This document shows, in pieces, positions 4,661-52,461 of a stretch of DNA of 64,000 nt. How positions within the stretch are numbered: position 1 is the first letter of the stretch; each line of letters starts with the position of its first letter. A program made the translations under genes and the position numbers. Source of the DNA: Syntrophales bacterium (GTDB taxonomy: Bacteria; Desulfobacterota; Syntrophia; Syntrophales; UBA2192); contig DAIMEJ010000003.1 of NCBI GenBank assembly GCA_036725345.1, positions 25,553 through 89,552 of the forward strand, written 5' to 3'. Below the pieces are notes generated by a model, which was not told the DNA's origin, did no database searches, and saw nothing but the letters and a program-made list of their open reading frames with translations.

Positions 4661-4692
4661 TTATCGGCAAGAAAAGGGGTATACAGACAAAA

Positions 4693-4768
4693 AAGCCTGG
4701 GGGTGCCCGAGCGGCTGAGATCATACCCCTTGAACCTGACCTGGGTAATGCCAGCGTAGGGAGCGGTT
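4693..4768 (+). ncRNA. TPP (THI-box) riboswitch
   Basis: GGGGTGCC...GCTGAGA...ACCC..TGAACCTGA.CTGGGTAATGCCAGCGTAGGGA matches the TPP aptamer core; directly upstream of thiamine genes. Confidence 0.95.
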
Positions 4769-4787
4769 GTGAAAATCCGGACATCGT

Positions 4788-4825
4788 GGGGCACATCCTG
4801 GATTATCAGGCTGTGCCCTTTTTTT
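4788..4825 (+). terminator. Intrinsic terminator, expression platform of the TPP riboswitch
   Basis: GGGCACA-TCCTG-gattat-CAGG-c-TGTGCCC stem followed by 7 T. Confidence 0.8.
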
Positions 4826-4934
4826 GTCCGGTGACCGGAAATCTCCAGCCTTCAAGGTCGAGCGGTCGCTGATCTCGTCGAAGACGTCTTCGATCCTTTT
4901 TCCCGGGGAAAATCCAGATGGCGGAGCTGAAGCT

Positions 4935-19068: not shown

Positions 19069-19512
19069 ATGTTTTGGCAGGATTTTGGACGATTTGGAAG
19101 AGGGTGGGACCCTTCACGGGACATAGAGAACCTTCGCAGGGAGATGAATCGACTTTTCACGACAACCAGCCCCCGGGAAGCGCCCGAATTTCCAGCCATG
19201 AACATCTGGGTTCGGGACAGCGACGCAATGGTGACGGCGGAGTTACCCGGCATCGACGCCAGGGATCTCGACATCTCGGTCATCGGTGACACGATGACCC
19301 TGAGCGGCAATCGGAAGGCCGATGTGTTGAAAGAAGGGGAGAGCTATCACCGGCAGGAGAGAGGGAGCGGTTCCTTCGCCAGGACGATGAGACTTCCGTT
19401 CAAAATTGAGGCGGACAAGGTTTCGGCGAAATACGAGCGCGGTGTCCTCCAGATCACGCTCCCCCGCGCCGAGGAGGATAAACCCAGGAAGATCCAGGTA
19501 AAATCCAAGTAG
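19069..19512 (+). CDS. Small heat shock protein (Hsp20/alpha-crystallin)
   Basis: PAMNIW, AELPG, LTLSG-like MTLSG, RQERGSGSFAR, YERGVLQITLP; AAAGGAGG SD. Confidence 0.93.
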   Translation: MFWQDFGRFGRGWDPSRDIENLRREMNRLFTTTSPREAPEFPAMNIWVRDSDAMVTAELPGIDARDLDISVIGDTMTLSGNRKADVLKEGESYHRQERGSGSFARTMRLPFKIEADKVSAKYERGVLQITLPRAEEDKPRKIQVKSK

Positions 19513-19530
19513 GAAAGGGAGGGTGATGAT

Positions 19531-19929
19531 ATGGCGAACAGGGATATGGAGAAACGCGAAGCACAGTCTCCTTCCGAGACGGAAAGAACGAGATCCCGGA
19601 GGGTTTACAGCCCCAGGGTGGATATCTATGAAGCCAAGGACGCCATCATGCTTGTGGCGGACATGCCGGGTGTCGACGAGAAGACCGTCGACATCACGCT
19701 GGATAAAAACATCCTGACGATCAGCGGCGCCGTCGAGCCCGACGCCTTCGAGGGGTATCAACTGGGATACAGCGAGTACGGGACGGGCGACTACCAGAGG
19801 TCTTTCACGGTTTCCGATGAGATCGACGGAGACAGGATTGCTGCCACCGTTAAAGACGGGGTTCTGCGCGTGACGCTGCCGAAGGCCGAAAAGGTCAGGG
19901 CAAGGAAGATCATTGTCAGAGCGGAATGA
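19531..19929 (+). CDS. Small heat shock protein (Hsp20)
   Basis: PRVDIYE, ADMPGV, YQRSF, KDGVLRVTLPK. Confidence 0.93.
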   Translation: MANRDMEKREAQSPSETERTRSRRVYSPRVDIYEAKDAIMLVADMPGVDEKTVDITLDKNILTISGAVEPDAFEGYQLGYSEYGTGDYQRSFTVSDEIDGDRIAATVKDGVLRVTLPKAEKVRARKIIVRAE

Positions 19930-19954
19930 AAGCGAAAAGAAGGAGGTGCCCATC

Positions 19955-20455
19955 ATGGATAAAAAGATTCGAGACTTTGTACCCGCCGTCCAGGGCGGGC
20001 GAACATCTGAAGAGCAGATGCCGTTGCAATCCCTGCAGCGGCAGGTCAACCGGCTCTTCGACGACTTCTTCGGCAGCTTCGATCTCAGGCCCTTTACCGC
20101 GATGGGACGCGCCGGTGAATTCACCCCCCGTGTCGACGTCAGGGAAAGCGACAAGGCATTGACCGTCACGGCCGAGCTTCCGGGCATGGACGAAAAGGAT
20201 CTGGACGTGTTGCTGTCGGAGGATTCCCTGACCATCAAAGGGGAGAAGAGGCATGAGAAGGAGGAAAAGAGCGAGAACTACTACCGCATGGAAAGGTCTT
20301 ACGGCGCTTTCCACCGGGTGATTTCCCTGCCGAAGGAAATTGACGTGAAGAAGGTCGAGGCGAGCTTCACAAAGGGTATCCTGACCGTAAACCTTCCCAA
20401 GACGGCCAGGGCCAAGGAGAAAACGAAGAAAGTCCCCATCAAGACGGGGAAATAA
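19955..20455 (+). CDS. Small heat shock protein (Hsp20)
   Basis: NRLFDDFF, PRVDVRE, AELPGM, ERSYGAFHR, KGILTVNLPK; AAGGAGG SD. Confidence 0.93.
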   Translation: MDKKIRDFVPAVQGGRTSEEQMPLQSLQRQVNRLFDDFFGSFDLRPFTAMGRAGEFTPRVDVRESDKALTVTAELPGMDEKDLDVLLSEDSLTIKGEKRHEKEEKSENYYRMERSYGAFHRVISLPKEIDVKKVEASFTKGILTVNLPKTARAKEKTKKVPIKTGK

Positions 20456-22098: not shown

Positions 22099-22114
22099 TG
22101 GCACGCAATCTGCT
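22099..22114 (+). promoter_or_regulatory. Putative sigma-54 (-24/-12) promoter of the pilus assembly operon
   Basis: TGGCACG-CAAT-CTGCT versus consensus TGGCACG-N4-TTGCW; 283 nt upstream of the pilMN start. Confidence 0.55.
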
Positions 22115-22396
22115 TCTTTACTTCGAGACCTTCGAAATTTCTTCAAAAATTGGAGATGTAAGCTTCAGAATTAGGAAGTTGAAAAGCATAAATAATATCT
22201 TGTGGTTTCCCCGTGGGGATGCGGGGAAAAGTGGTCGGTTTTCCCCCGGTGACGGCGAAGAGTGGGTCTGCATTAAAAATTCTTGACAAATGTGATTAAT
22301 TAGATAATGTTTTCCAATATTTTGGTCGGTTTCACTTTTTGTTGAACGCAGGAAGTTATTCCATCCCTGGAATAAAGGGGCAGTGACCGAACTGGG

Positions 22397-24289
22397 ATGA
22401 CTATGAAATCGGATCGAGAAATCTCTTCGACAGAGAAACTGCTGGACATCATTCGCGGAAAAAAGGATTCCGGCATTGAAATAACGGATGATGCGATCAG
22501 GGTTAAACCGAAGAGGCCTTCCCTGAAGGCGTTCCGTTTCAGGCCCTTCGATTCCAAAGTAACCGTGGGTGTTGATATCGGGAGCCAGAGCCTCCGGATG
22601 GTTAAAATCCAGGAGACCGCCGAAAATCAGTGGAAGTTGGTTGATTACCGATCCGTACCGCTCCCGAAGGCATCGGTCGGCTCTTTCGAATTTACAGGCT
22701 TTGTCAAGTCGGAGCTCAACAAGTTCTGCGGGACCCCCAAGAATCTCAAGGTCTGGAGTCTTATTCCCTCCTCAAAAGTCGATGTCCGGTTCATCAAGAT
22801 ACCGAAGGTTCCGCCGAAACAGGTGGAAAACGCCGTCTACTGGACCGTGAAAAAGGAGGTCACTTTCGAGGACAACGAGACCATCCTCGATTACGATGTC
22901 CAGGGGGACATCACCGAGCAGGGTGTTCAGAAACTCTCCGTCCTGGTCCACACGACACCCCGCTCCGAGGTGCAGTCCGTCCAGGATCTCTTCTCCGACG
23001 CGGGTTACCATCTGGCCGGGGTCACCATCGCCCCCTTTGCCATCCAGAATCTCTTCCGGACCGAGTGGGTCCCGGTCGTGGGGGATGTGACGGCCAGTCT
23101 CTACATCGGCAGGGACTGGTCACGCATCGACATGTACACGAAGGGCAACCTGGTGCTGACACGCGGGATAAAGGCGGGGCTCAACAGCATGGTCGAGGCG
23201 CTCGTTGAGACCTACAATGAGAAGATCAAGAAAGCCCCGGCTGAGAGGGATGCCCTGACGAAGACCGACAGGGGCTTGACGACGGAACAGGCGCATAAGC
23301 TTCTCATGAGCCTCAACCCGGATGCCCCGCCGCTGGGTCGTGAGGACGCCGGGCATCAGCTAAAGGAAGAGGAAATCTTCTCCATGATCCTGCCTGCCAT
23401 CGAGCGGCTCGTCAGGCAGGTCGAGAGGACCTTTGCGAACGTCGGTGCGGAGAGAGTCGGCAAGATCTACATCGCCGGCGTCATCGACGGTTACAAGCCG
23501 CTGGTCGACTACATCGGCGATCAACTGGGGATCGAAAGCGGGATCATGGATGTCCTGTCTCCGGACAACCCCTCCATCTACGACGTCAACCCCCCGGCTT
23601 CCGTTTCGGAGAGGGTCGCTTTTGCGCCGGCCGTGGGGCTGGCATTGTCGGACAACACGCGCACGCCCAACCTCATCTTCACGTACAAAGCCAAGGAGAA
23701 GATGGTCAAGGTGACCCGGGTCAACCGCGTCATTATGATGGGTAGTTTACTTTTTATCCTGCTGGGAACGGGCGCCTTCTACTGGCAGTTCCACCTGGCG
23801 GATCAGAAAAAAGCAACCTATGAAAGCCTCGGGAAGGAACTGGACCGCTACAACCCGAGAATCGACAAAAACTTCATCCTTCAAATCGCCACCAAGGTGA
23901 AGCAGGAACAGGGGGTCACCAGGAGCTACAGTGAAAGGTACCTCGGGATGGCGGTCATCAGCGAACTCTCGACCCTCACCCCCTCCCATATCCGGCTGCT
24001 CAAGTTGAGAACGGATATGGTACCCCTCCCCGCCGCGAATAATCCCGCGGTCGCCCCCAAAAAGGAGCCCGCCAAGGAAGTCGAGAAGGTGAGAAACGTG
24101 GAGGTCGAGGGCATCGTCCTGGGCGATCGGGCCAAGCTGGAAAGCCTCCTCTCGTCCTACGTGCTCAAGTTGCAGAGTTCCCCCCTGTTCAAGGACACCA
24201 AGGTTCAGAAAACCAGCGTTGAGTCCTATTACTTGAACAAGGGGCAGAGCGAGGTTCTGCGGTTCAACCTGACGGTCAAAGTGATTTAG
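22397..24289 (+). CDS. Type IV pilus assembly protein, PilM (actin-like) fused to PilN (TM + periplasmic domain)
   Basis: VGVDIGS actin-like phosphate loop, PilM-like core to ~aa 420, NL-containing linker TPNLIF, single TM, PilN-like C-term (VEGIV...LQSSPLF...FNLTVKV). Confidence 0.8.
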   Translation: MTMKSDREISSTEKLLDIIRGKKDSGIEITDDAIRVKPKRPSLKAFRFRPFDSKVTVGVDIGSQSLRMVKIQETAENQWKLVDYRSVPLPKASVGSFEFTGFVKSELNKFCGTPKNLKVWSLIPSSKVDVRFIKIPKVPPKQVENAVYWTVKKEVTFEDNETILDYDVQGDITEQGVQKLSVLVHTTPRSEVQSVQDLFSDAGYHLAGVTIAPFAIQNLFRTEWVPVVGDVTASLYIGRDWSRIDMYTKGNLVLTRGIKAGLNSMVEALVETYNEKIKKAPAERDALTKTDRGLTTEQAHKLLMSLNPDAPPLGREDAGHQLKEEEIFSMILPAIERLVRQVERTFANVGAERVGKIYIAGVIDGYKPLVDYIGDQLGIESGIMDVLSPDNPSIYDVNPPASVSERVAFAPAVGLALSDNTRTPNLIFTYKAKEKMVKVTRVNRVIMMGSLLFILLGTGAFYWQFHLADQKKATYESLGKELDRYNPRIDKNFILQIATKVKQEQGVTRSYSERYLGMAVISELSTLTPSHIRLLKLRTDMVPLPAANNPAVAPKKEPAKEVEKVRNVEVEGIVLGDRAKLESLLSSYVLKLQSSPLFKDTKVQKTSVESYYLNKGQSEVLRFNLTVKVI

Positions 24290-24297
24290 GTCGGCGC

Positions 24298-24831
24298 ATG
24301 AAGCCAAAGGAAATATTTGAAACGTTGAAAGGAAGCTTCTCTTCCCTGCTGGTCGGGGTGATCATCATCGTGATCTTCCTGGTCATTGGCTTTTACAACG
24401 TCCGGTCCCTGAACGATCTGGACCGTGACGTCCAGAAAATCAAGGCTGATATCGAGGAACAGCGCATCATGGCGCCTCTCTATAATGATCTCATCGAGAA
24501 GATCAAGGTCAAGACGAAGAAGCATTTGCCCTTCCCCGCCAAAGCCAAGTTGCCCAGGGAACAACACGAGCAGATTACGTCGATATTCGGGGAACTGGCG
24601 AAGAGGGCCAACCTCGAGGTCGTTTCCATCACACCGGATGTCAATTCACTGGCGGGGGGATCCGGCCTGCTGGTGGTCAACGCGGCTTTAAAAGGGGATT
24701 TCTTCAATTTCAGGAATTATCTGATTGAGCTAGGAAACGTGCCTTACCTGGAGCATCTGGGAGAAATCCAGATACAGACCATTCCGGGCGGCAGAGAGTT
24801 CCACCTCAAATTGTGGGTGTCCGTGGGATGA
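24298..24831 (+). CDS. PilO-like inner membrane alignment protein
   Basis: N-terminal TM, coiled coil, ferredoxin-like C-term (LKGDFFNFRNYLIEL); position after pilMN. Confidence 0.7.
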   Translation: MKPKEIFETLKGSFSSLLVGVIIIVIFLVIGFYNVRSLNDLDRDVQKIKADIEEQRIMAPLYNDLIEKIKVKTKKHLPFPAKAKLPREQHEQITSIFGELAKRANLEVVSITPDVNSLAGGSGLLVVNAALKGDFFNFRNYLIELGNVPYLEHLGEIQIQTIPGGREFHLKLWVSVG

Positions 24832-24901
24832 TGGATCGAACAGGGGGATCTTTTGTTGATCGGGGTCCGGGGCAACCCCGTCGTCTGCCGGGGCTGATGG
24901 A

Positions 24902-25399
24902 ATGAAAAAACGGGAAAGGATCATTCTGGCCGTCATGTTCGCGTGCATCCTGTTCGCCGGCTATTATTTTTTCCTCTCGGGAGCGGGACCGGGGGCCCCG
25001 AAGGTGGCCGTGACCGGCGGCAAGCCCGCGGATTCGGCGAAGATGATGGCGGAGATCGCCAACAGCCTGAAGAAAGACCCGGCGACGGAACCGGATGCCT
25101 ATGTGATCGCGCGGGCGGAAACCAACTGGGAGACGGACCCTTTCTACAAGGGGGTCCTCGCCTCTGCAAAGGACAAATCGGCCGGGGCGGGAAAGGGTCC
25201 GGATATCGTCTACTCCGGTTTTGTGGACCTGGGGGTGAAACGGATAGCCGTCATCAACGGCAACCCTTATGAGGTGGGTGACAAGCTCGAATTAGCGGGC
25301 TCCTATTATGTGAGGCAGATCGACTCGACCAGGGTCGTCGTCGTAGACAGGGAACAGAGCAGAAATATCACCATCCCGTTGAAGGACGAGACTTTTTAA
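24902..25399 (+). CDS. PilP/GspC-like pilus accessory protein
   Basis: N-terminal TM; DPF motif; beta-domain YSGFVD...AVING..YEVGD; position before secretin. Confidence 0.6.
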   Translation: MKKRERIILAVMFACILFAGYYFFLSGAGPGAPKVAVTGGKPADSAKMMAEIANSLKKDPATEPDAYVIARAETNWETDPFYKGVLASAKDKSAGAGKGPDIVYSGFVDLGVKRIAVINGNPYEVGDKLELAGSYYVRQIDSTRVVVVDREQSRNITIPLKDETF

Positions 25400-25410
25400 G
25401 GAGAAAAGCC

Positions 25411-27066
25411 TTGAACTTGACAAGACTGAAAAAAAGAACCTGGTGTTGGGTCTTTGTAGTCGGCCTGGGCCTCATTATTTCATGTTCCGCCCCGGCAACC
25501 GATATTAAGAAGGACCCGTTTTTTGAGAAATGGGGCACCCTTGCCGATCAATCCAAGGGGCAATCGCCGACGGCCAGGGAACGAGTCATCGAGACGCCGC
25601 CGATGGGACCCGACGAGATTGCAGAGCAGCAGGTCATGGCGACAAGGGACCGGCCTCTTCCCACCAAGCGGGTCAGCCTCAGGATGCACAACGTGGACAT
25701 CAACGTCATCCTGCGGGCCATGGCGCAGGCCGCCAACCAGAACATCCTGATCAAATCCGGCGTCAAGGGCCAGAGCAGCATTCACATCAATAACGAGCCC
25801 TGGGACGAGGCTTTCAAGGGCATCCTGAGGACCAACGGGCTGGTCTACACCTGGGAGGGGAACATCATCCGGGTGATGACGGTGGAGGACATGGAGCACG
25901 ACATCAAGCTGGCGTCCACCGTGGACAGGCGGCGGGCCCAGAAGCTCGTCACCATGGTCATGAATGTCGATTTCGCCGACGCCGGCAAGTTGAAGGAGAG
26001 CGTGAAAGAATTTCTGACGAAGGAAAAGGACGGGAAGCCTCGCGGATCCGTCACGGTGGACGAGCACACGAATTCCCTGATTATCCAGGCCACCCGGGAT
26101 GACCTCGAGCGGATCAAGCCCATGCTCTCGAAGCTGGACAAGCCCATACCCCAGATCACGATCAAGGCCAACATCGTCGAGGCGACGAAGGACACGGCCC
26201 GCGACCTGGGTGTGCAGTGGGGCGGCATTTACGGAAACACCGTCAACAGCAAACAGTACTTCGTCACGCCCGGCGGTTCCGGGGGCACGGCAGGGACCAA
26301 CCCGCTCACCGGGTCCTACACCCCGACCTTCGGCCAGACCGGGATCGGCGGGCAGGGGAACGCCGTGAATTTCCCTGTCAGCGCTGAAGCGATCGCCGCG
26401 GCCGGGGGCTCCGGCTCCCTGGGGCTCATATTCGGGACCATCGGCGGCAGTTTTCTTGAAGTGCAGCTGCAGGCCCTCCAGACGGACGGGAAGCTGAACA
26501 TCCTCTCGAGCCCCTCCATCACGACCCTCGACAACCAGACGGCCTACACCGAAAACGGTGAACGGGTCCCCTATGTGGCGACCAGTTCGACGGGGGGGAC
26601 GGTCACGCAGGAGGTGAGATTCGAAGACGCCGTCCTTCGACTCGAGGTGACACCGCATGTGATCGACGGCAAGAACCTGAAGATGAAGATCAAGGTGAAG
26701 AAGGACGAGGTGGACACCACCCGGACCGTCCAGGGGAACCCCTACATCATCAAGAAACAAACGGAAAGCACGCTCATCGTGCAGGACGGGGAGACCATCG
26801 TCATCTCCGGTCTCACGAAACAGACAATCCTCGGCAGCAATTCGGGCATTCCCGGTGTGAAGGATATCCCCGGTCTCGGCTGGCTCTTTTCGACGGATTC
26901 GACGTCGAATCAGTTCCAGGAAGTCCTCGTGTTCATCACGCCGCACATCCTGAAAACGCAGGTAGCGGGCGGGGCCCCGAAGACGGAGGTGCCGTCGGAA
27001 GCACCCCCCTTGCCGGAAAATCCGGTCAAATCCGGTGAGGCCCCCTCGAAACAAATAAAGGAATGA
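25411..27066 (+). CDS. pilQ: Type IV pilus secretin (PilQ family, short, lipoprotein-like)
   Basis: STN/N-domain, ITIKANIVEA, DLGVQW, LSSPSITTLDNQTA, LRLEVTPHV, VQDGETIVISGL, IPGLGWLF, FITPHI; LIISC possible lipobox. Confidence 0.9.
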   Translation: MNLTRLKKRTWCWVFVVGLGLIISCSAPATDIKKDPFFEKWGTLADQSKGQSPTARERVIETPPMGPDEIAEQQVMATRDRPLPTKRVSLRMHNVDINVILRAMAQAANQNILIKSGVKGQSSIHINNEPWDEAFKGILRTNGLVYTWEGNIIRVMTVEDMEHDIKLASTVDRRRAQKLVTMVMNVDFADAGKLKESVKEFLTKEKDGKPRGSVTVDEHTNSLIIQATRDDLERIKPMLSKLDKPIPQITIKANIVEATKDTARDLGVQWGGIYGNTVNSKQYFVTPGGSGGTAGTNPLTGSYTPTFGQTGIGGQGNAVNFPVSAEAIAAAGGSGSLGLIFGTIGGSFLEVQLQALQTDGKLNILSSPSITTLDNQTAYTENGERVPYVATSSTGGTVTQEVRFEDAVLRLEVTPHVIDGKNLKMKIKVKKDEVDTTRTVQGNPYIIKKQTESTLIVQDGETIVISGLTKQTILGSNSGIPGVKDIPGLGWLFSTDSTSNQFQEVLVFITPHILKTQVAGGAPKTEVPSEAPPLPENPVKSGEAPSKQIKE

Positions 27067-28763
27067 GTTACTACAGACTGTTAGAGTTGAATAGAGAGCC
27101 CTTTTCCAACTCGCCCGAGCCTGATCTTTTTTATCAAGCCCCTCAGCACGTCCAGTGCCTGCAAAAGCTCGAGATTTCCATCCGGCTCCGCCGGGGCCTC
27201 AACGTTGTCATGGGTGACGTGGGAACGGGGAAGACCACCCTTTCACGGATGCTCATTCGGAAGTTCCGCGGTGAGGGCAATGTCGAGATGTTTCTTGTTC
27301 TCGATCCCGACTTTGGCAGCGCCCTAGAGTTTCTCGTCGCCGTCGCCCGGTTGTTCGGGGTCTATACGCGCGAGGCGGCGTCGAGCGAGTGGCAGCTCAA
27401 GGAAAACATCAAGGACTATCTGTTCCACCAGGCAATCCAAAAAGACCGAATTATCGTGCTGATCATCGACGAGGGTCAGAGACTTCCGCCTTTTTGCATC
27501 GAATTGCTGAGAGAGTTGCTCAATTACGAGACCAACACGTCCAAGCTCCTCCAGATCGTCGTCTTCGCCCAGAAGGAATTCAAGAAAACCCTCGATGAAC
27601 ACGCCAATTTCGCCGACCGCGTGAACGTCTGTCACGTCATGAACCCGCTCAATTTCGGCCAGACGCGGGCCATGATCCGGTTTCGGATCGACAGGGCCAG
27701 CGAGGCCGGGAAAAACCCGATTCTCTTCACCGCGCCGGCGCTGTGGGCGGTGTACAGGGCCACGGGCGGGTACCCTAGGAAGATCATGATGCTCGGTCAC
27801 CAGATTCTCCTGAAGATGATCGTTGAGGACCGGAAGCGGGCCGACTGGTCGCTCGTGCGATCATGCATCAAAGACACGGCGCCGGTGAGGCCCGTTGTCA
27901 GGACATGGCGGCTCGCCCTCGTCCCCGCCTGTATCGCCTTTGCGGCCCTCGTCCTCGGGTTGACCTTTGAAAAACCGTCGACCTGGCTGACGAGGGCGGT
28001 GCAGGAATCCGGCATCACCGCGCTTTACAGGGGTGCGCCGGGCCCGGGGACTCCTGCTGTTGAACCGGCCGTGGACGGCGACGGAAAGGGGCAGGTGCTT
28101 CGGGAGGCGTCCCTTGAAAACCTGCCTGCGACAGCGCCTTCAGCGGGGGACGTACCCCGCGATTCGAGTACCGGGCTGAAAGAGGACCCCCGGGGAACGG
28201 CGGAGAAACCGTCGGCGAGACTTGCCCTGGATATGCCTGCGGTTCCCATACCGCCTCCTTCGGCCGCCTCTTTGCGGGAAAAAGAAATACCCGAATCGCT
28301 GGGGCGGATCACCGTAAAGAAGAAAAATGCCTGCATGCAGGTCCTCCGGCAGCTCTACGGTTCATCGGCCGAGACGCACCTGGAGGGTCTTTCAAAGGCC
28401 AACGTGAAGTTTAAGGACATCAGCAAGGTCAAGGTCGGGGACACGATCCGCTTTCCGGCCCTCCCGGCCCCGTCGAGGCCCGATCAGCATGCGGCCTACT
28501 GGGTGCAGCTCGTGGAGATGGAAACACTGGAAGATGCGTATGAGTACGTCAATCATTACACGGCCCGCGTGGCCCGGACCAGGATACTTCCTTTCTGGAG
28601 CCGCGAGGGAGGGCTGCGGTTCTCCGTCCTTCTGGGAGAAGGTTTCAACCATGAAGGGTCGGCCCGGAGGGCGATGAGGAATCTTCCGCAGAAAATCGCC
28701 GCATCCGCCGAGATCGTCAGTGACTGGGGCGAGGGAACCGTGTTTTTCGCCGATCTGGGATGA
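27063..28763 (+). CDS. ExeA/GspA/MshM-like AAA+ ATPase with TM and periplasmic LysM-like and SPOR-like domains
   Basis: REPFSNSP, GDVGTGKT, IIDEGQ, TGGYPRKI; TM at ~aa 285; KVKVGDTIRFP (LysM-like); YWVQL...FSVLLG (SPOR-like). Confidence 0.82.
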   Translation: MSYYRLLELNREPFSNSPEPDLFYQAPQHVQCLQKLEISIRLRRGLNVVMGDVGTGKTTLSRMLIRKFRGEGNVEMFLVLDPDFGSALEFLVAVARLFGVYTREAASSEWQLKENIKDYLFHQAIQKDRIIVLIIDEGQRLPPFCIELLRELLNYETNTSKLLQIVVFAQKEFKKTLDEHANFADRVNVCHVMNPLNFGQTRAMIRFRIDRASEAGKNPILFTAPALWAVYRATGGYPRKIMMLGHQILLKMIVEDRKRADWSLVRSCIKDTAPVRPVVRTWRLALVPACIAFAALVLGLTFEKPSTWLTRAVQESGITALYRGAPGPGTPAVEPAVDGDGKGQVLREASLENLPATAPSAGDVPRDSSTGLKEDPRGTAEKPSARLALDMPAVPIPPPSAASLREKEIPESLGRITVKKKNACMQVLRQLYGSSAETHLEGLSKANVKFKDISKVKVGDTIRFPALPAPSRPDQHAAYWVQLVEMETLEDAYEYVNHYTARVARTRILPFWSREGGLRFSVLLGEGFNHEGSARRAMRNLPQKIAASAEIVSDWGEGTVFFADLG

Positions 28764-28766
28764 CAC

Positions 28767-30503
28767 ATGCAAGGAAAGGTGGGGAAAGTGAAAGTCAGGA
28801 AAAAACTGGGGGAAATGCTCGTAGAGGCCAAGCTGTTGACGGATGAACAGCTCAATCAGGCGCTGACGGATCACAAGAAGAGCGGCCTCAAGCTGGGCAA
28901 GTATCTCATGCAGCAGGGGACCCTGACGGAATACCAGATCATCAGCGTCCTGAGCCAGCAGTTGAAGATAGAGAAGTACCATCCGGACAAGTACCCCGTG
29001 GACATCAACCTCGTCCAGATTGTGCCTTCGGACATCGCCCAGAAATACCAGGTTGCTCCGCTGAAGAAAAAGGGTCACCTCCTGACCATCGCGATGGTCG
29101 ACCCTGTCGATATCAACGCCCAGGACGCCATTGAAATGCTCACCAACCACGAGGTGGAACCCGTGGTCTGCACGGAACGCGAGTTGAACCAACTCATCGG
29201 GCAGGTCTACGGGATGCAGTCGGGAATCGGCGGGGTGCTGGAGAGCATCGAGGAACTCAAGATTGATTCGGGTGCCGACGCCGACGCCATCGCGGGGCCC
29301 TCGACGGACGATCTGCAGGTCAGCTCTCTCCAGGGGATGGCCGAGGAAGCCCCGATCGTGCGCCTCGTCAATTCCATCATCTCGCAGGCCGTCCGCGAAA
29401 GTGCAAGTGACATCCATCTCAGCCCGCAGCTGAAAAATGTCCAGGTGAGATTCCGGATTGATGGCAGGCTGCACGAAGTCCCCGCGCCCCCCAAGGCCAT
29501 GTTCCTGCCCATCATATCCCGGATCAAGATTCTGGCCAATATGGACATCGCCACATCGAGGATCCCGCAGGACGGGCGATTCACGGTCAAAATGGAAAAC
29601 AAGGAGATCAACGTCAGGGTTTCCTCGATCCCGACGATCTACGGGGAAAACCTCGTTTTGAGACTTCTCGACATGGGTGCCGGCGTCTACTCCCTGGATC
29701 GTCTGGGCATGTCCAAGGAGGACAAGGACAAGGTCGACTCCATCATCAACAAACCCTACGGCATGATTCTCAGCACGGGGCCCACCGGCAGCGGCAAGAG
29801 CACGAGCCTCTACGCCATCATCAAGGAAATCAACCGGGCCGATATTCACATCATCACGCTCGAGGACCCCGTGGAATACAGGGTCGAGCGGGTGAGGCAG
29901 GTACAGCTGAATCGGAAGGCGGGGATGACCTTTGCCAGCGGGTTGAGGTCGATTCTCCGGCAGGACCCGGATGTCATCATGGTCGGCGAGATCCGGGACG
30001 GCGAAACGGCGGGAATCGCCGTGCAGGCGGCACTGACGGGTCACAGGGTCCTGAGCACCGTTCACACCAATGATTCCGCCGGTGCGATCACCCGGCTTCT
30101 CGACATGGGCATCGAGCCGTTCCTCGTTTCGTCGGTCCTGCTCGTCTCTTTTGCCCAGAGGCTCGTGAGGACCATTTGCACCTATTGCAAGGAGCCCTAC
30201 CGGCCGAACGAGAAGGTGGTCGAGGCCTGGGGACTCAACGGGGTGAAGGACGGTCAGTTCCAGCGCGGACGGGGATGTCCCGCCTGCATGGGAACGGGTT
30301 ACCGGGGGCGAACGGGTCTCTTCGAAATCCTTCTCAATGACGACCTCATTCAGGACATGATTATCAAAGGGGCTTCGGCCCAGGAGATCCACCGCGCGGC
30401 CAAGCAGGCCGGGAGGCTTCGGACCCTCAGGGAGGATGCCGTTATCAAGGTCCTCAACGGCGTCACGACACTGGAGGAAGCGGCCTCGGCCGTCATGGTC
30501 TGA
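28767..30503 (+). CDS. pilB: Type IV pilus extension ATPase (PilB/GspE family)
   Basis: MshEN-like N-term KLGEML, ASDIH, PQDGR, GPTGSGKST, EDPVE, VGEIRD, TVHTND, CxxC...CxxC Zn site. Confidence 0.93.
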   Translation: MQGKVGKVKVRKKLGEMLVEAKLLTDEQLNQALTDHKKSGLKLGKYLMQQGTLTEYQIISVLSQQLKIEKYHPDKYPVDINLVQIVPSDIAQKYQVAPLKKKGHLLTIAMVDPVDINAQDAIEMLTNHEVEPVVCTERELNQLIGQVYGMQSGIGGVLESIEELKIDSGADADAIAGPSTDDLQVSSLQGMAEEAPIVRLVNSIISQAVRESASDIHLSPQLKNVQVRFRIDGRLHEVPAPPKAMFLPIISRIKILANMDIATSRIPQDGRFTVKMENKEINVRVSSIPTIYGENLVLRLLDMGAGVYSLDRLGMSKEDKDKVDSIINKPYGMILSTGPTGSGKSTSLYAIIKEINRADIHIITLEDPVEYRVERVRQVQLNRKAGMTFASGLRSILRQDPDVIMVGEIRDGETAGIAVQAALTGHRVLSTVHTNDSAGAITRLLDMGIEPFLVSSVLLVSFAQRLVRTICTYCKEPYRPNEKVVEAWGLNGVKDGQFQRGRGCPACMGTGYRGRTGLFEILLNDDLIQDMIIKGASAQEIHRAAKQAGRLRTLREDAVIKVLNGVTTLEEAASAVMV

Positions 30504-30545
30504 ATTTTTCTCTCTCGTGCGATTATTTTTGAACGGAAGGATCCC

Positions 30546-31781
30546 ATGCCTAAATTCACATACGAGGCGATCGCGGAAAGCGGCGCGGCCCTGTCGGGGG
30601 TCATCGAAGCGGAGTCTGCCGAGATGGCGAACACCCTGCTCGCCACCCGGGGTTATATCCCGTCAAAGGTCAAGAGGGTTTCCGAGGGGGGGGTCGGCCG
30701 GGGCCTGGCCTTCGACTTCATCCAGTCCCGGTTGGCGTCGGTCAAGGCTTCGGAGCTCATCCTTTTCACAAAGCAGTTCCGGACCATGTTCAGGGCGGGT
30801 GTGCCGATCATGCGAATATTCGAGGTTCTCGGTTATCAGACGCAGAACCCGAAATTGAAGAGGATCATCACGGGAATTGCCGGCGACATACAGGAAGGCG
30901 CCACCCTGTCGGACGCGCTGTCGAAGCATCCCGACACCTTCACACCCCTTTACCGGAGCATGATCAAGGCCGGCGAGACCAGCGGTAACATCCCCGAGGT
31001 ATTGGAGCGGATGATCTATATCCTGGAGCACGAGCACAAGATCAAGTCGGACATCCGGTCAGCCATGCAATACCCCATCATCGTGCTCATTGCTCTGGGG
31101 GTGGCCTTTTTCGTGCTCCTGACCTTCGTCATCCCCCGGTTTGTGACGATCTTCTCCAGGGCGGGGCTCGCCCTTCCCTGGCCGACGAAGGTCAGCATGG
31201 TGCTCTACTCCGTGCTCAGCAACTACTGGTACATCTGCCTGGCCGCCGTCGTCCTGGGGGGGATAGCGCTGCGGATGTATTTCAAGACACCGGTGGGTCG
31301 ATACACGAGGGATGCCTTCATCCTGCGCATTCCGCTCATCGGCACCCTTTTCATCCGGGCGGCCATGTCGCGGTTCGCAAGCATCTTTTCCATCCTCCAG
31401 TCGAGCGGTGTCCCCGTGATGACGTCCCTGCAGATCCTCTCGGGGACCATCGGCAACACCGCCATCGCGAGGGAATTCGACCGCGTCCGGGACCGTGTGG
31501 AGGAGGGAAGGGGCATTTCAGGCCCCCTGAATGTGGCAAAGTACTTCACCCCCATGGTGATTCAGATGGTTTCCATCGGCGAGGAGTCGGGTCAGCTCGA
31601 TGAAATGCTGAAGGCCGTGTCGACCCACTATGATGACGAGGTGGCCTATTCCGTTCAGCGGCTATCCGAAGCCGTGGGCCCGATTCTGGTCGTCGGCCTT
31701 GCGGCGGTGGTCGGCTTTTTTGCCATGGCCATTTTCCTTCCGATGTGGGACCTCACGCAGGTCGCGCGGACGGGATTCTGA
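30546..31781 (+). CDS. pilC: Type IV pilus platform protein (PilC/GspF family)
   Basis: FTYEA, FTKQF..MFRAGVP, GETSG, AMQYP, GEESGQLDEML, AIFLPMW. Confidence 0.93.
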   Translation: MPKFTYEAIAESGAALSGVIEAESAEMANTLLATRGYIPSKVKRVSEGGVGRGLAFDFIQSRLASVKASELILFTKQFRTMFRAGVPIMRIFEVLGYQTQNPKLKRIITGIAGDIQEGATLSDALSKHPDTFTPLYRSMIKAGETSGNIPEVLERMIYILEHEHKIKSDIRSAMQYPIIVLIALGVAFFVLLTFVIPRFVTIFSRAGLALPWPTKVSMVLYSVLSNYWYICLAAVVLGGIALRMYFKTPVGRYTRDAFILRIPLIGTLFIRAAMSRFASIFSILQSSGVPVMTSLQILSGTIGNTAIAREFDRVRDRVEEGRGISGPLNVAKYFTPMVIQMVSIGEESGQLDEMLKAVSTHYDDEVAYSVQRLSEAVGPILVVGLAAVVGFFAMAIFLPMWDLTQVARTGF

Positions 31782-31882: not shown

Positions 31883-33208
31883 ATGAAGCGCCCTCAGATC
31901 AACGTCAGTCTTTACGTTCTCATTCCGGTGATCTTCAGCGGGATTGCCGTCTTCGCGATCATCATCACCTACCGGATGATGGTGTCCTATGCCCAGTTTC
32001 CCGTGGAGTCCCTATCCTACCTTCAGTGGTGGGGTCTGGGCATCACCGTCTTCACCTTTCTCTGCGCGCTGTTCATCACGTGGCTCATCCTGAGACCGAT
32101 CAAGCAGTTCATCAAGAAGACGGAGAACCTCCCCGTATTCCCGAAATCCCAGGTTGAAAGCGTGAAGAGCTCCAAGGGGGACGATCTGGCGCAGTTCAAC
32201 ACGGTCTTCGAGCAGGTCAGCAACATCCTGAGCAAGGTCGAAGCCAAGGAGCTTTTCCCCGAAATTGTCGGGCAGAGCAAGGCCGTCAGGGGCATCTTCA
32301 GCCAGGTCTTGAAGATCGCGCCGACGGACGCGACGGTCCTCATCACGGGAGAGAGCGGGACGGGAAAGGAACTCATCGCCCAGAGCATTTATCAGCACAG
32401 CCTGCGGAAGGATCGACCCTTCGTCAAGCTCAACTGTGTGGCCATACCCGAGGGGCTGCTGGAGAGCGAGCTGTTCGGCCACGAAAAGGGATCTTTTACC
32501 GGGGCCACGGCGCAGAAAAAAGGAAAGTTCGAGCTGGCCAACAGCGGGACCATTCTCCTGGACGAAATCGGGGACATGCCGCTTACCACGCAGGCCAAGC
32601 TGCTTCGCGTTCTCCAGGAAAAGGAATTCGAAAGGGTGGGTGGCACCCGATCCATCAGGGTCGATGTCCGCTTCATTGCCGCGAGCAACAAGCAACTCCC
32701 CAAGCTCGTCCAGGACGGGTCATTCAGGGAGGATCTCTTCTATCGGCTCAACGTTCTTTCCCTGTACCTGCCGCCCTTGAGGGAGAGGCGAGAGGACATT
32801 CCCCTTTTGGCGGAATATTTTCTATCCAGGGCGGCAAAGCCCGTGAATATTTCATCCGCGGCGCTGCAGTCCCTGATCGGCTACAGCTGGCCCGGAAACG
32901 TCAGGGAACTTCAAAACACGATTGAGCGGGCTGCCGTCATGGCTGAAAACGGCATCATCCAGATCCATCATATCCCCCCCCAGATTACAGGCGGTGTCGT
33001 CGGTCAGATCACGAATGAACTGCCCGAGACGGCGTCCATCGACGACAGGCTGCAGGAAATTGAGAAGAAAATAATCGTTGACGCTTTGATCAGGGCCGAC
33101 GGTATACAGGTCAAGGCCGCCCAGATTCTCGGGATCAAAGAGCGAAGCCTCTGGCACAGAATCAAGAAATACGACATTGATGTCACGGCCATAAAGAAAT
33201 CTACATAA
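31883..33208 (+). CDS. Membrane-anchored sigma-54 enhancer-binding protein (2 TM + HAMP-like linker + AAA+ + Fis HTH)
   Basis: Two N-terminal TM helices; IVGQS, TGESGTGKE, ESELFGHEKGSFTGA, LLDEIGD, FREDLFYRL, WPGNVREL, AAQILGI; no receiver domain. Confidence 0.88.
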   Translation: MKRPQINVSLYVLIPVIFSGIAVFAIIITYRMMVSYAQFPVESLSYLQWWGLGITVFTFLCALFITWLILRPIKQFIKKTENLPVFPKSQVESVKSSKGDDLAQFNTVFEQVSNILSKVEAKELFPEIVGQSKAVRGIFSQVLKIAPTDATVLITGESGTGKELIAQSIYQHSLRKDRPFVKLNCVAIPEGLLESELFGHEKGSFTGATAQKKGKFELANSGTILLDEIGDMPLTTQAKLLRVLQEKEFERVGGTRSIRVDVRFIAASNKQLPKLVQDGSFREDLFYRLNVLSLYLPPLRERREDIPLLAEYFLSRAAKPVNISSAALQSLIGYSWPGNVRELQNTIERAAVMAENGIIQIHHIPPQITGGVVGQITNELPETASIDDRLQEIEKKIIVDALIRADGIQVKAAQILGIKERSLWHRIKKYDIDVTAIKKST

Positions 33209-33346
33209 ATTGGAGGGCTTGCTTCAATATTTGTAAGTATTTTATATTTTTCAGGTTTCAAAAAAAAGGCAAGCCGGTGAAAATTGATTGATAATGGTAT
33301 GAATTCACTCACCATTCTTGTTTTGCCCCGTCTTTTATCCGGGACA

Positions 33347-33362
33347 TGGCATGGTTCATGCT
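33347..33362 (+). promoter_or_regulatory. Putative sigma-54 promoter of the major pilin gene
   Basis: TGGCATG-GTTC-ATGCT with correct GG/GC spacing, between the EBP gene and pilA. Confidence 0.65.
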
Positions 33363-33615
33363 GATTCGATGCTCTGACGGCGTCCAAAAGTCGCTGAAAA
33401 TCAAGGATGTAGTGACAGGTTCTTTTATAACATAGCTATCGCGGGCAGATTTTTTGTTACGGGTTGCCTAAAATCCTACCGTGACACGGACCTTAAGGGC
33501 ATGTCTCTCCCGCGTAGGAGATAAAAAGGTTCTTTAGAGGATGGCGTTTGGTGGTTCTCGAGAAAAGGAATTCTAATAATAAATGGTGAATAAACGAGTT
33601 TCAAGGAGGTTTCAG

Positions 33616-34002
33616 ATGCGTAGTCAAATGCTCATCAAAAATCAGAAAGGTTTCACGCTGATCGAGATCATCGCCGTTCTCGTGATCCTCGGGATCCTGG
33701 CTGCCGTCGCCATCCCGAAGTACTTCAGCCTGCAGGAAGAGGCCAAGATCAGAGCGGCGGTGGGGGCCGTGGCCGAGGGTAAAGCCAGGGTCACCCAGTA
33801 TGGTGCCCAGGAGCTTCTGAAAAACAGCAGGTGGCCTGGCTTAGATAGTTACACCAACGCTGCCCTCGGAACCGGTGCTGGTGATTTTACGCTGTCTTTT
33901 TCTCGTGATGGAAGCGACATCGTTGTTAAGGCAATAGGAAGAGCTGCACCTGTTGCAGGTACCAGCACGAGCGGCAAAATCAGGCCGCCGACCGGAAGCT
34001 AA
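33616..34002 (+). CDS. pilA: Major type IVa pilin
   Basis: QKG/FTLIEIIAVLVILGILAAVAIPKY class III signal; AAGGAGG SD; own promoter and strong terminator; 116-aa mature chain. Confidence 0.88.
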   Translation: MRSQMLIKNQKGFTLIEIIAVLVILGILAAVAIPKYFSLQEEAKIRAAVGAVAEGKARVTQYGAQELLKNSRWPGLDSYTNAALGTGAGDFTLSFSRDGSDIVVKAIGRAAPVAGTSTSGKIRPPTGS

Positions 34003-44189: not shown

Positions 44190-44559
44190 GGCTTCCCGTA
44201 AAATGCAAGATAAAAAGATTAATGAAATTGAGGATGTTCAACCGACGCAGGGCGCGTTTAAAAGCTTTTTCCGGAGTCAAAAAACCCTTGTCCGCTCAGA
44301 AGGGGCCATCTGGCGAGCATGGTGGGTAAGTAGTTAAATTTATGTGTAAATCATTGACTTTTGGTAATGTTTTTGCTCATCATCGAAGGGGGGCCCTTCA
44401 CCTCCCCGGTACTCCGACAGGCCGCTCTTCCGCTCGAGGGCTTTTTGTTCTGATTCACAGGGCTGAGGCATCGGCAATTTTAACGGACGGGGGAGACCGA
44501 GAACAGTTAAAGGCCCTCCGGCTGAGCCCCCTGTGACTTTTACCCTCGTTGAGTTGTAT

Positions 44560-45276
44560 ATGAATTGGAAGGAACAAGACGAGATCATCTCGAGGGTGCT
44601 AAAGGGCGACCGAAACGCCTACACCCTGGTGGTCAATCGGTATAAAGGCCCGATCTTCAACCTGGCCTATCGCATGACAGGCAGTTATCACGATGCCGAT
44701 GATCTCACGCAGGAAACTTTTTTGAAGGCCTACACGGCCCTCGGGAAGTTCAAGAGAGACAGAAAATTTTTCACCTGGCTTTACACGATCAGCCTCAACC
44801 TGATCCGGAACCATCACAGGAGGGCAAAGCCGGTGTCGGATCCCATGGAGGCCCTGTGCAGCGGCGAACCCGGCAGCGATTTCGAAAACCCGGAGGGAAG
44901 CGCCATCCGGGGGGAGGAAATCAAGCGGCTCGACATCTGCATGCGCAGACTGGCCCCGGATGTCCGGGAAGCCGTTGTCCTGAGGTTTCACCAGGGGCTG
45001 TCCTTTGAGGACATCGCGACGGTGAGCGGATGCTCCCTGAGCGGGGCAAAAATGAAAGTATACAGGGGTCTCGAGAAGCTGAGACTCCTGATGGACGAGA
45101 CGATAGGGGAAAGAAACCGCCATGACGAAAGAGGCAGAAATGACCACGGCGAGGGAGCACCTGGAGAAACGCATGGAGAGGGCCCTACTGGAGGAGCTTT
45201 CGCCGGAGGAAAGAGCCCTTCTGGAGAAGGACCTGCAGGGGGCGCCCGAGCTCCTCGCGAAGTGGAGAGATCTTGA
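44560..45276 (+). CDS. ECF RNA polymerase sigma factor
   Basis: DADDLTQETFLKAY, FFTWLYTISLNL..NH (region 2); REAVVLRF..GLSFEDIA...GAKMKVYRGLEKLR (region 4). Confidence 0.9.
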   Translation: MNWKEQDEIISRVLKGDRNAYTLVVNRYKGPIFNLAYRMTGSYHDADDLTQETFLKAYTALGKFKRDRKFFTWLYTISLNLIRNHHRRAKPVSDPMEALCSGEPGSDFENPEGSAIRGEEIKRLDICMRRLAPDVREAVVLRFHQGLSFEDIATVSGCSLSGAKMKVYRGLEKLRLLMDETIGERNRHDERGRNDHGEGAPGETHGEGPTGGAFAGGKSPSGEGPAGGARAPREVERS

Positions 45277-50745: not shown

Positions 50746-52137
50746 TCACTTCTGTCTGCCGAAGTTGCTGATCTGGGCGATGAGTTCGTCCACGGTGGCT
50801 TTTTCGTCGATAATGAGGTGCGGTCCCGTGCTCTCGACGGCATCCACCGCATCGCCAAAGTCCTTGCCGCCCGACATGTACTGGGCATCCCCCTTCCCGA
50901 GACCGTTGCCGTTATCCGGGTAGGCACGCTGGAAGACATCCGCACCGCTTCCGTTGCCGGGCAGGAACGGGGTGACAGTCGCCCCCCATCCTGCCGCCGA
51001 CGCGCGGGGGCTCCCCGAGTCGGTTTCCTGAACAAGCTGACCCTCCGGCCGGAAAGCGGCCGCGTCGCCGTCGATGAGCGGCGAGACATAGACGAGTTCC
51101 TGGGCGGCCTCGGCAGAGGGCTTGAAATTATCCGACGGTGGATAGAAGCTCGTGCGGGTCTGCAGGTATTCTTTCAGGTATCGCTCCATCGTGAACATGC
51201 CGTCGGCCTTGCCCATCTGGATGGCGCTCTCGATCTGGGGGATCTTGTTTTCTCGGATGATGCCCTTCACGGACTGGGTGCCCCGGGCGATGGAGAGCAT
51301 GGGCACCCTGTACCCAAGTCTTTCCATGAAGGTGAGCTGCTGGATGATGACCCACTGGAGGGCCGAGGCCAGCTGAAAGCGGATTTCCTCCTGAGCCTCC
51401 ACGGGAAAGGAGTTGCAAAGGCGGTAAAGGGCGTCCTCGGCATTCGTCGCGTGCAGAGAGGCGATGACCAGCTGCCCGGACTCGGCCGCGTTCAGGGTCA
51501 GGCGCATGACCTGAGGTTCGCGGAGCTCGCCCACGACGATGACATCGGGCGCCTCCCGAAGGACGTCGAGGAGACCCTGTTCGAAGGAAGGCATATGGGT
51601 ACCGAACTCGCGCTGCTCGATGAAGGAGTTCTTGGAAATGAAACGAAATTCGATGGGGTCTTCCAGTGTGACGATGTGGGCCGCCCGTGACCGGTTGATT
51701 TCGTCGACGAGGGCCGCGATGGTCGTCGATTTGCCGGCTCCCGCGGCGCCGCAGATCAGGATGAGCCCCGCCTTTATTCCTGCAATCTGTTGCAGGGAAG
51801 GATGGAGGTTCAGCTTTTCGATGCAGGGGACCGTGCCCGGCAGGAGGCGGATGGCAAGGCTCAAGCCCCGGGTCGTGTTGAATATGCTGACCCGGATCCG
51901 GACCTGCTGGATGCTCATGGCCAGATCGACGGACCAGCGCTGTCTCAGCGTGTTGAGCTGACGGGACGTGAGGATCTTTTTGACCAGGGCGTCCACTTCC
52001 CTGTGGTTCCACCGGCCGTTCTTGTCAAAGTGAACCTGGCCATTCTTCCTGAACACCAGGGGGCTGCCTCCCGTGATGTGAATATCGGAGTATTCATCAC
52101 GGACGGCTGCATCTATGACTTTACTGAACTTGTTCAT
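50746..52137 (-). CDS. pilT: PilT/PilU family retraction ATPase with long C-terminal extension (paralog 1)
   Basis: SDIHITGG, GAAGAGKSTT, TLEDPIEF, PDVIVVGELRE, SLHAT, KGIIRENK; AGGAGG SD. Confidence 0.88.
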   Translation of the reverse strand: MNKFSKVIDAAVRDEYSDIHITGGSPLVFRKNGQVHFDKNGRWNHREVDALVKKILTSRQLNTLRQRWSVDLAMSIQQVRIRVSIFNTTRGLSLAIRLLPGTVPCIEKLNLHPSLQQIAGIKAGLILICGAAGAGKSTTIAALVDEINRSRAAHIVTLEDPIEFRFISKNSFIEQREFGTHMPSFEQGLLDVLREAPDVIVVGELREPQVMRLTLNAAESGQLVIASLHATNAEDALYRLCNSFPVEAQEEIRFQLASALQWVIIQQLTFMERLGYRVPMLSIARGTQSVKGIIRENKIPQIESAIQMGKADGMFTMERYLKEYLQTRTSFYPPSDNFKPSAEAAQELVYVSPLIDGDAAAFRPEGQLVQETDSGSPRASAAGWGATVTPFLPGNGSGADVFQRAYPDNGNGLGKGDAQYMSGGKDFGDAVDAVESTGPHLIIDEKATVDELIAQISNFGRQK

Positions 52138-52461
52138 GGCTACCCTCCTCCTGAAGGGCCAGAGCCGAAGATAGGATATGTAAAGTGAACTGTTCCCTCT
52201 CTTTTTATCGGCAGGAAATGAAAAGACCTTAACAATTCGAGCATTTTTCATGCCAGGCATTTTTCACGGCCCAAAAGAAAAAGCTCCTGTTTTTGAGTTG
52301 TTAGAGCCTTTCTCTGAGAAGGGCTATTTTATCCCTGAAGGATATTTGACGGGTTTACTGAAATTTGATTTGAAAATTGTAAAAAGAATGGGTCGGCCGG
52401 CGGACAGAAAGGGGAGGAAGCGCCGCAAGGAGGTTTTTAACCCTTTGAATCGATATGGGAT

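Follow-up and report, generated by a model that had tools for sequence, protein, structure and literature searches.

The window analyzed here is a 64,000-nt stretch of a Syntrophales bacterium genome (assembly GCA_036725345.1, contig DAIMEJ010000003.1) that carries an MSHA-like pilus cluster. Its assembly operon encodes, all in the same direction, a PilM/N fusion, two small open reading frames (ORFs), a secretin, an MshM/ExeA-like AAA_22 ATPase, an MshEN-containing PilB/MshE ATPase and PilC, and it ends with the gene of a 441-residue sigma-54 enhancer-binding protein, hereafter the activator. The major pilin gene lies downstream, preceded by a pair of palindromes at the end of the activator gene and by a -24/-12 promoter element (coordinates in Table 1). 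Comparison with related loci indicates that the PilS/PilR-sigma-54 pilin circuit is collapsed here into one membrane-anchored enhancer-binding protein, and that this arrangement is real, conserved and functional-looking.

The output half of the activator is that of an ordinary enhancer-binding protein. Pfam assigns residues 128-294 to Sigma54_activat (PF00158, E 7e-72), residues 300-370 to AAA_lid_14 (E 9e-25) and residues 390-430 to the helix-turn-helix (HTH) family HTH_8 (PF02954, E 8e-10). Both Walker motifs are intact (A, GESGTGKE; B, LLDEIGD). At residues 203-208 (nt 32489-32506), the loop that contacts sigma-54 reads GSFTGA and not GAFTGA as in most relatives; the same variant is present in the Desulfovibrio vulgaris activators DVU2394 and DVU3220, both of which have assigned target operons (PMC4641369). 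Residues 1-127 have no Pfam match. A receiver domain (Response_reg, PF00072) is missing from the activator and from its 120 best homologues, and neither HisKA nor HATPase_c was detected in the activator. As no NCBIfam model reached its cut-off, the protein is best described as a generic superfamily member with no named equivalog.

The N-terminal part appears to be a membrane module. Kyte-Doolittle hydropathy in 19-residue windows rises above 1.6 in two places only, near residues 14-26 and near residues 56-68, and reaches at most 1.06 elsewhere. In the first transmembrane (TM) helix, L10, Y11, P15 and G20 are nearly invariant. Basic residues stand ahead of TM1 (K2/R3) and after TM2 (R71/K74/K78/K79). 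Since the two hydrophobic peaks are flanked in this way, the N-terminus, the AAA+ domain and the HTH are predicted to be cytoplasmic (N-in/C-in), with about 19 residues exposed outward. We therefore infer that the activator is an inner-membrane enhancer-binding protein with two N-terminal helices and with its AAA+ and HTH domains facing the cytoplasm. The initial annotation, made from the sequence of the window, had described two TM helices with a very short outer loop, an AAA+ domain with a GSFTGA variant and an HTH, and no receiver domain, and all of this held. Its statement that no kinase lies nearby was likewise borne out: Pfam detected no HisKA, HATPase_c or Response_reg in the pilus cluster and the selected genes between 15.0 and 63.9 kb, and a six-frame pattern scan of the 64 kb revealed no H-box and no second GAFTGA-type protein.

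This gene arrangement is widespread. A profile of the N-terminal 135 residues led to 128 species genomes, from which 80 loci were kept, 72 of them evaluable downstream of the activator. All the loci belong to Syntrophales, Desulfobacterales or unclassified Thermodesulfobacteriota metagenome-assembled genomes (MAGs), and there are at least 120 full-length homologues of the activator among the matches listed. When run against 1.84 billion representative proteins, the N-terminal profile returned only 118 clusters, nearly all of them activators of 427-480 aa or fragments. In 76 of the 80 loci the gene directly upstream is a pilC homologue, at a median distance of 8 nt; in 43 of these 76 the gap is 20 nt or less or the genes overlap. 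Gaps this short leave no space for a kinase gene. The complete order (PilMN, orfA, orfB, secretin, MshM, MshE, PilC, activator) was recovered in 49/80 loci, and most of the others are broken by contig ends. By synteny and alignment, the activator and its MSHA-like pilus cluster are a conserved family and not a one-off, and the activator would be expressed as the last gene of the pilus-assembly operon. One MAG (that of L062) carries an orphan paralogue of the anchored activator (L027, 3116-4468) with no upstream pilC and with no pilin, palindrome or -24/-12 site downstream.

Candidate enhancer and predicted promoter of the pilin gene

When the loci were aligned on the activator stop codon, a CTACA-N5-TGTAG palindrome was found across the family, either at the stop or immediately behind it. 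Allowing one mismatch at most, it occurs between -40 and +260 of the stop in 60/72 loci; this corresponds to 70 matches in 21.6 kb, whereas the other 1.06 Mb contain 24, so that the palindrome is enriched 140-fold. Of the 57 loci with both elements, 54 have the palindrome at a distance of 98-201 bp upstream of the -24 element. Many loci contain paired palindromes spaced by 21-23 or 30-32 bp, equivalent to two or three helical turns. The window has two copies near the stop, CTACATAAATTGGAG and CTTCAATATTTGTAA, and only three matches in its whole 64 kb (0.15 expected). The palindrome overlaps the last activator codons in registers that differ by clade, so that the protein ends in KST, LQKM or LQ, and selection therefore acts on the DNA and not on the peptide. 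The palindrome is likely an enhancer and a candidate target of the activator HTH. It was absent from the initial annotation and is new in the present analysis.

A side effect of this overlap is that the last two to five codons of the activator (33199-33208 in the window; likewise in L001-L080) appear to be set by the palindrome, a case of a cis element constraining a protein C-terminus.

Downstream of the palindromes, the -24/-12 element TGGCATGGTTCATGCT starts 138 nt past the activator stop, with a transcription start predicted near 33373. A -24/-12 site in front of pilA had been proposed before, and its conservation argues that the proposal was right. Counting motifs in the window is uninformative here, as 17 bare -24/-12 matches were found versus 20 expected (up to two mismatches), which is not above chance. 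The significance of the pilA site comes instead from its conservation across species: TGG[CT][AG]N-N5-NTG[CT]N, summarized as TGGCAY-N5-xTGCW, is present within 450 nt past the activator stop in 64/72 loci, whereas its frequency elsewhere in these loci, 0.032 per 450 nt, predicts about two. When eight close relatives are aligned, TGGCATGGTTCATGCT is an invariant island amid diverged DNA. The resulting layout, with an enhancer, a loop of 100-200 bp and a sigma-54 promoter, is the classical arrangement.

The gene downstream of this promoter is also nearly constant. A pilin with the almost invariant N-terminus GFTLIEIIAVLVILGILAAVAIPKYF is found downstream in nearly all loci, and in the window the prepilin gene has a strong ribosome-binding site (Shine-Dalgarno AAGGAGG at 33603-33609). 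Loci L004-L018 have two tandem pilin genes past the promoter, at about +500 and +1050 from the activator stop, and the window has one. A riboswitch or structured leader in the pilA 5' untranslated region was considered and rejected: the leader of about 240 nt had no Rfam match, and its folding energy was not better than that of shuffled sequences (z -0.19).

Putative sensor module and probable origin of the fusion

Conservation along the N-terminal module was measured as entropy over 23 full-length relatives with 58-94% identity (values in Table 1). Helices and loop behave very differently. Across the activator family indels are absent from TM1, TM2 and residues 71-83 and 100-127, and the outer loop is the least conserved segment of the protein. 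The linker after TM2 consists of a helix starting with RPIKQF, a variable and probably exposed connector (residues 84-99), and a second helix, DDLAQF...ILSKVEAKELFP, that enters the AAA+ domain. Such a pattern is the signature of intramembrane sensing with rigid-helix transmission and not of a periplasmic ligand binder.

The same linker bears on whether the anchored protein is the active form. The membrane form could be an inactive precursor from which proteolysis near residues 71-125 frees a soluble, PspF-like AAA+-HTH activator. The exposed connector would offer a site for cleavage, and release would solve the geometric difficulty of forming a hexamer on DNA while tethered. Nevertheless, we consider this very unlikely, given that no protease gene is conserved in the cluster and that the helix leading from residue 100 to the AAA+ domain is conserved without indels, which suits a signalling helix better than a disposable tether.

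Remote homology gives the linker a provisional identity. The family profile aligns with kinase P0235, a weak match in the exhaustive profile search that has a genuine HAMP domain, with an hhalign probability of 95% (E 3.7e-8). The alignment spans the Pfam HAMP domain of the kinase (206-258), and part of its score comes from the aligned TM helices. It places the invariant P72 opposite the HAMP proline, and D100-D101-L102 opposite the DEL motif. In a low-confidence AlphaFold2 (AF2) model, the helices predicted at residues 10-36, 44-81, 89-95 and 101-118 match the picture of two TM helices followed by helix, connector and helix. It is thus reasonable to call residues 71-127 a divergent HAMP-like linker, although they fall below the Pfam threshold.

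More informative relatives of the module were found in front of kinases. P0201 and P0212 are histidine kinases of 377 and 381 aa in which the sensor module precedes HisKA and HATPase_c. Their loci (L081 and L082) contain, in this order, PilC, the kinase, an activator with receiver, AAA+ and HTH domains, two CTACA-N5-TGTAG palindromes at the stop codon of this response regulator, GGCAC-N5-TTGC and a pilin. Three longer contigs found via the response regulator (L085-L087) show MshE, PilC, kinase, response regulator and pilin in this order. Residues 14-124 of the window activator align with residues 21-142 of the kinase at 32% identity (E 6e-17), and the sensor module aligns with the L085 kinase at 98.7% hhalign probability. 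Residues 124-439 are 59% identical to residues 138-460 of the L081 response regulator. The joint falls at about residues 123-124 (EL|FP), where SKVEAKEL resembles the SHLREREL of the kinase and FPEIVGQS the FPDIIGQS of the response regulator.

A careful maximum-likelihood tree of the AAA+-HTH region, including the 24 nearest other response-regulator activators, placed the TM-anchored activators in one clade (100/99) and the pilC-linked response regulators in another (100/99). The two clades group together versus the 24 other activators (89/72; 88% of bootstrap trees). The outgroup activators contain receivers, and the gene for the kinase stands immediately before that for the regulator; the simplest history would therefore be a single in-frame deletion reaching from the kinase output helix to the regulator linker helix. 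We infer that the sensor of a PilS-like, pilC-linked kinase was fused to the linker, AAA+ and HTH of the adjacent PilR-like regulator, in this direction, with loss of the kinase core, made of the dimerization and histidine phosphotransfer (DHp) and catalytic (CA) domains, and of the receiver. With a sensor homologous to that of a kinase, an output 59% identical to that of a regulator and a two-protein pair occupying the same slot after pilC in a sister lineage, the earlier proposal of one membrane-anchored protein in place of a PilS/PilR-type pair gains considerable substance.

It could be argued that a canonical pilS/pilR pair located elsewhere in the genome governs the pilin gene, leaving the local activator an auxiliary role or another target. 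This is highly improbable, as the activator, enhancer, promoter and pilin gene remain linked in about 60 species and the slot is filled by a local pair in the sister lineage.

The kinase relatives also speak to the role of the membrane part. Because the homologous module drives a kinase in the sister lineage, it is likely a signal-transmitting unit and no mere anchor. A purely localizing function, with the TM helices placing the protein at the membrane or the pilus machine, would imply a constitutive activator whose dose is set by operon transcription, so that pilin synthesis follows machine synthesis in a feed-forward manner. The position of the activator gene at the end of the assembly operon, with stop and start often overlapping or nearly abutting, is consistent with such a design, and so are the short, variable outer loop and the failure of Pfam to recognize a ligand-binding domain. 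It is difficult, however, to square a passive anchor with a module that serves as histidine kinase input, or with a TM2-to-AAA+ linker that is HAMP-like, conserved and of fixed length. We regard this explanation as unlikely.

The module has been joined to other outputs as well. In P0125 (L083, 3214-5442; 742 aa), the module and AAA+ domain are followed by HisKA-HATPase_c-Response_reg in place of the HTH, resembling an activator-like ATPase feeding a hybrid kinase. In P0126 (L084, 8001-10868) and P0130, of 953-955 aa, the module and a sigma-54 AAA+ domain are followed by MshEN and a PilB/GspE-type ATPase. P0126 has its Walker B replaced (LFLHQV), and its gene lies outside a pilus cluster, beside a lone receiver gene.

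What the module reads is a separate question. Instead of the pilin pool, it might respond to the assembly machine (PilC, PilN/O-like proteins or the MshE ATPase) or to a general membrane cue. The tight genetic coupling of the activator to pilC is compatible with this, and the fusions of P0126 and P0130 to a PilB/MshE-type ATPase hint at motor association; these fusions may nonetheless act otherwise, considering the lost Walker B of P0126 and the position of the genes outside pilus loci. The precedent of PilS favors pilin: in Pseudomonas it interacts directly with PilA via TM segments (PMC6058289, citing Kilmury and Burrows 2016). Sensing of the machine or of a general cue is possible, if somewhat unlikely.

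Proposed mechanism and relation to known systems

We consider it quite likely that a membrane-anchored activator with a fused PilS-like sensor binds the palindromes and drives sigma-54 transcription of the pilin gene without phosphotransfer, in response to an intramembrane signal. Activator dimers would bind the CTACA-N5-TGTAG palindromes at and after their own stop codon (33201-33236) and assemble into an AAA+ ring. With the intervening DNA of about 140 bp looped out, this ring would open the sigma-54 closed complex and give rise to a pilin mRNA whose leader is about 240 nt long.

The control step, an intramembrane signal passing through the HAMP-like helix, is less certain and is proposed by analogy. 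The TM helices may take their signal within the membrane, with the unassembled pilin pool as one leading candidate and PilC or the assembly machine as the alternative. The HAMP-like helix, whose length is fixed, may relay it directly to the AAA+ domain and so allow or prevent formation of the ring. If NtrC1/DctD and HAMP signalling are a guide, the dimeric unit of two TM helices and HAMP-like linker could hold the AAA+ domains unable to assemble until the signal releases them. Conserved TM helices and an unconserved outer loop fit a pilin signal, and PilC or another machine component could fit them equally.

Several observations weigh against this scheme. A six-subunit ring tethered by twelve TM helices while on DNA poses a geometric difficulty. 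The AF2 model of the full protein, built from 23 sequences, has a predicted local distance difference test (pLDDT) score of 55 and is silent on oligomers. The HAMP-like linker named in the initial annotation stands in part: the remote alignment to the HAMP domain of P0235 is consistent with it, but the window activator does not reach the Pfam gathering score for HAMP (PF00672) and only 1/17 family members matches (E 0.0099). Searching the PDB with the N-terminal sequence profile gave chance-level matches only (E 0.3 or higher). The grouping of the anchored activators with the pilC-linked regulators has only moderate support. Co-variation cannot name pilin as the ligand, because the pilin N-terminus is almost invariant. 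The palindrome copies of the window are each one or two bases off consensus. Finally, no RpoN box was found in the six-frame pattern scan of the window.

A bolder version of the mechanism can be formulated. The TM helices would bind pilin or PilC in the bilayer, the HAMP-like helix would convert this binding directly into assembly or disassembly of a ring that works while tethered, and the nascent activator, inserted co-translationally, would be born beside an enhancer that overlaps its own stop codon, making a phosphorylation-free and cis-acting circuit. If true, transcription, translation and membrane insertion of pilin would all be kept at the pilus machine. We offer this version tentatively, and find it rather doubtful as a whole.

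The closest characterized system is PilS-PilR of Pseudomonas aeruginosa, also found in Myxococcus, Geobacter and Xanthomonas. As in the window, the pilin gene is adjacent to coding sequence for a membrane sensor and a sigma-54 AAA+/HTH activator, and it carries a -24/-12 promoter with upstream activator sites. In contrast to PilS-PilR, the window system is one polypeptide with no DHp/CA kinase core, receiver or phosphotransfer; it has two TM helices instead of six, and the activator is itself membrane-bound. The uncharacterized, metagenomic pilC-linked pairs (L081, L082 and L085-L087) are closer still, sharing homologous sensor and AAA+-HTH parts, the slot after pilC, the palindromes, the promoter and the pilin type. 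They differ in that two proteins keep HisKA, HATPase_c and Response_reg, whereas the window protein lacks the middle and has its two ends fused directly.

For the proposed control of assembly, NtrC1/DctD provide the nearest parallel. In these proteins a coiled coil keeps dimers inactive until a signal arrives, the assembly state being the regulated step. The window activator shares with them a long helix that runs straight into the AAA+ domain at the conserved (F/L)P.I(I/V)GQS start. Their helix comes from a phosphorylatable receiver, whereas that of the window activator comes from a HAMP-like domain on TM helices.

Other one-polypeptide regulators resemble the activator in principle only. ToxR, TcpP and CadC, which are sigma-70 activators, have one TM helix, sense through a periplasmic domain and bind DNA with an OmpR-type winged helix. 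Like the window activator, they unite sensor, membrane anchor and DNA-binding output in one polypeptide at the membrane. Yet the window activator is an ATP-driven AAA+ ring-former acting on sigma-54, with only HTH_8 for DNA binding and an outer loop of about 19 residues, so that membrane tethering is all they share with the ToxR/CadC type. The intramembrane-sensing kinases LiaS and BceS have two TM helices and a minimal outer loop, and they receive their signal from another membrane protein. The activator is like them in its two helices and minimal loop, and unlike them in that their output is a kinase and not an attached transcription motor.

Enhancer-binding proteins are treated as soluble, either sensing inside the cell or receiving signals from kinases. 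No description of this activator family turned up in literature searches on enhancer-binding proteins with a membrane anchor or transmembrane segments. In a survey of Clostridiales, most input domains of enhancer-binding proteins were without transmembrane regions (PMC6615313). The family described here would wire the AAA+ motor directly to a membrane sensor across more than 100 species of syntrophic and sulfate-reducing bacteria. The persistence of a two-protein, ancestor-like form in the sister lineage provides a before/after pair, in which a HAMP output helix drives a kinase in one case and, presumably, an AAA+ ring in the other. It also provides a test case for how a hexameric ring could assemble on DNA while membrane-tethered. 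As a compact, phosphorylation-free switch from sensor to sigma-54 with a defined 15-bp operator, the system may serve as an orthogonal genetic part. Pili in syntrophic consortia are linked to cell-cell contact and electron transfer, and the circuit bears on how they are regulated.

Other features of the window

Table 1. Positions of the features discussed, counted from the first nucleotide of the window
Feature	Position	Strand	Basis
Membrane-anchored sigma-54 enhancer-binding protein, 441 aa	31883..33208	+	ORF, Pfam, full-length homologues with 58-94% identity
TM helix 1, predicted, residues ~8-30	31904..31972	+	Hydropathy, conservation (entropy 1.30); AF2 helix 10-36 (low-confidence model)
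Outer loop, predicted, residues 31-49, short and variable	31973..32029	+	Least conserved segment of the activator (entropy 2.67, with indels)
TM helix 2, predicted, residues ~50-70, from conserved W50	32030..32092	+	Hydropathy, conservation (entropy 1.65)
Divergent HAMP-like linker, putative, residues 71-127	32093..32263	+	Family alignment, profile alignments
Post-TM2 helix, residues 71-83			Entropy 1.30
Helix into the AAA+ domain, residues 100-127			Entropy 1.06
Sigma-54 interaction AAA+ domain	32264..32764	+	Pfam PF00158
Fis-type HTH_8 DNA-binding domain	33050..33172	+	Pfam PF02954
Candidate enhancer (upstream activating sequence, UAS) site 1, CTACATAAATTGGAG	33201..33215	+	Palindrome match, overlaps the activator TAA
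Candidate enhancer site 2, CTTCAATATTTGTAA, 21 bp after site 1	33222..33236	+	Palindrome match
Sigma-54 -24/-12 element, TGGCATGGTTCATGCT	33347..33362	+	Motif match, cross-species conservation
Major pilin (prepilin) gene, GFTLIEIIAVLVILGILAAVAIPKYF	33616..34002	+	Pfam N_methyl, NCBIfam, conserved downstream gene
Pilus-assembly operon ending with the activator	22397..31781	+	Pfam, synteny
PilM/N fusion	22397-24289	+	Pfam
PilC	30546-31781	+	Pfam
Second -24/-12 match, TGGCACGCAATCTGCT	22099..22114	+	Motif; 298 nt upstream of pilMN
Third palindrome-like site, CTTCAAAAATTGGAG	22141..22155	+	Follows the pilMN -24/-12 match by 27 nt; conservation in L001 and L002
Sigma-70-like block, CTTGACAAA...TAGATAATG	22285..22313	+	~100 nt ahead of pilMN; no variation between two diverged clades

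Upstream of pilMN the situation differs from that of the pilin gene. The second -24/-12 site that the initial annotation placed there does exist as a match (TGGCACGCAATCTGCT), but it is conserved only in the two nearest clades. The next clade has a different site, TGGCAYRTATTGTGCA, at another position, and more distant loci have nothing comparable. A sigma-54 site in front of pilMN was therefore rejected as a family-wide trait; the invariant sigma-70-like block lies closer to pilMN and is probably the basal promoter of the assembly operon. Autoregulation of this operon is possible in the lineage of the window and is not a trait of the family.

One other regulator was detected in the window, an extracytoplasmic function (ECF) sigma factor (Sigma70_r2 and r4_2; 44533-45276, + strand) whose gene heads a minor-pilin operon. 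Sigma-54, ECF sigma and probably sigma-70 promoters would then all be in use within the pilus super-locus. Two tandem PilT-like ATPases with T2SSE matches and long C-terminal extensions (50746-53709, - strand) face the minor-pilin operon in convergent orientation. Three small heat-shock protein genes stand in a row shortly before the pilus locus (19069-20455, + strand), two assigned to HSP20 by Pfam and the third by eye. Farther upstream, within a thiamine gene group, a thiamine pyrophosphate (TPP) riboswitch (RF00059, 68 bits; 4689-4780, + strand) directly precedes a thiD-like gene (4824-6281).

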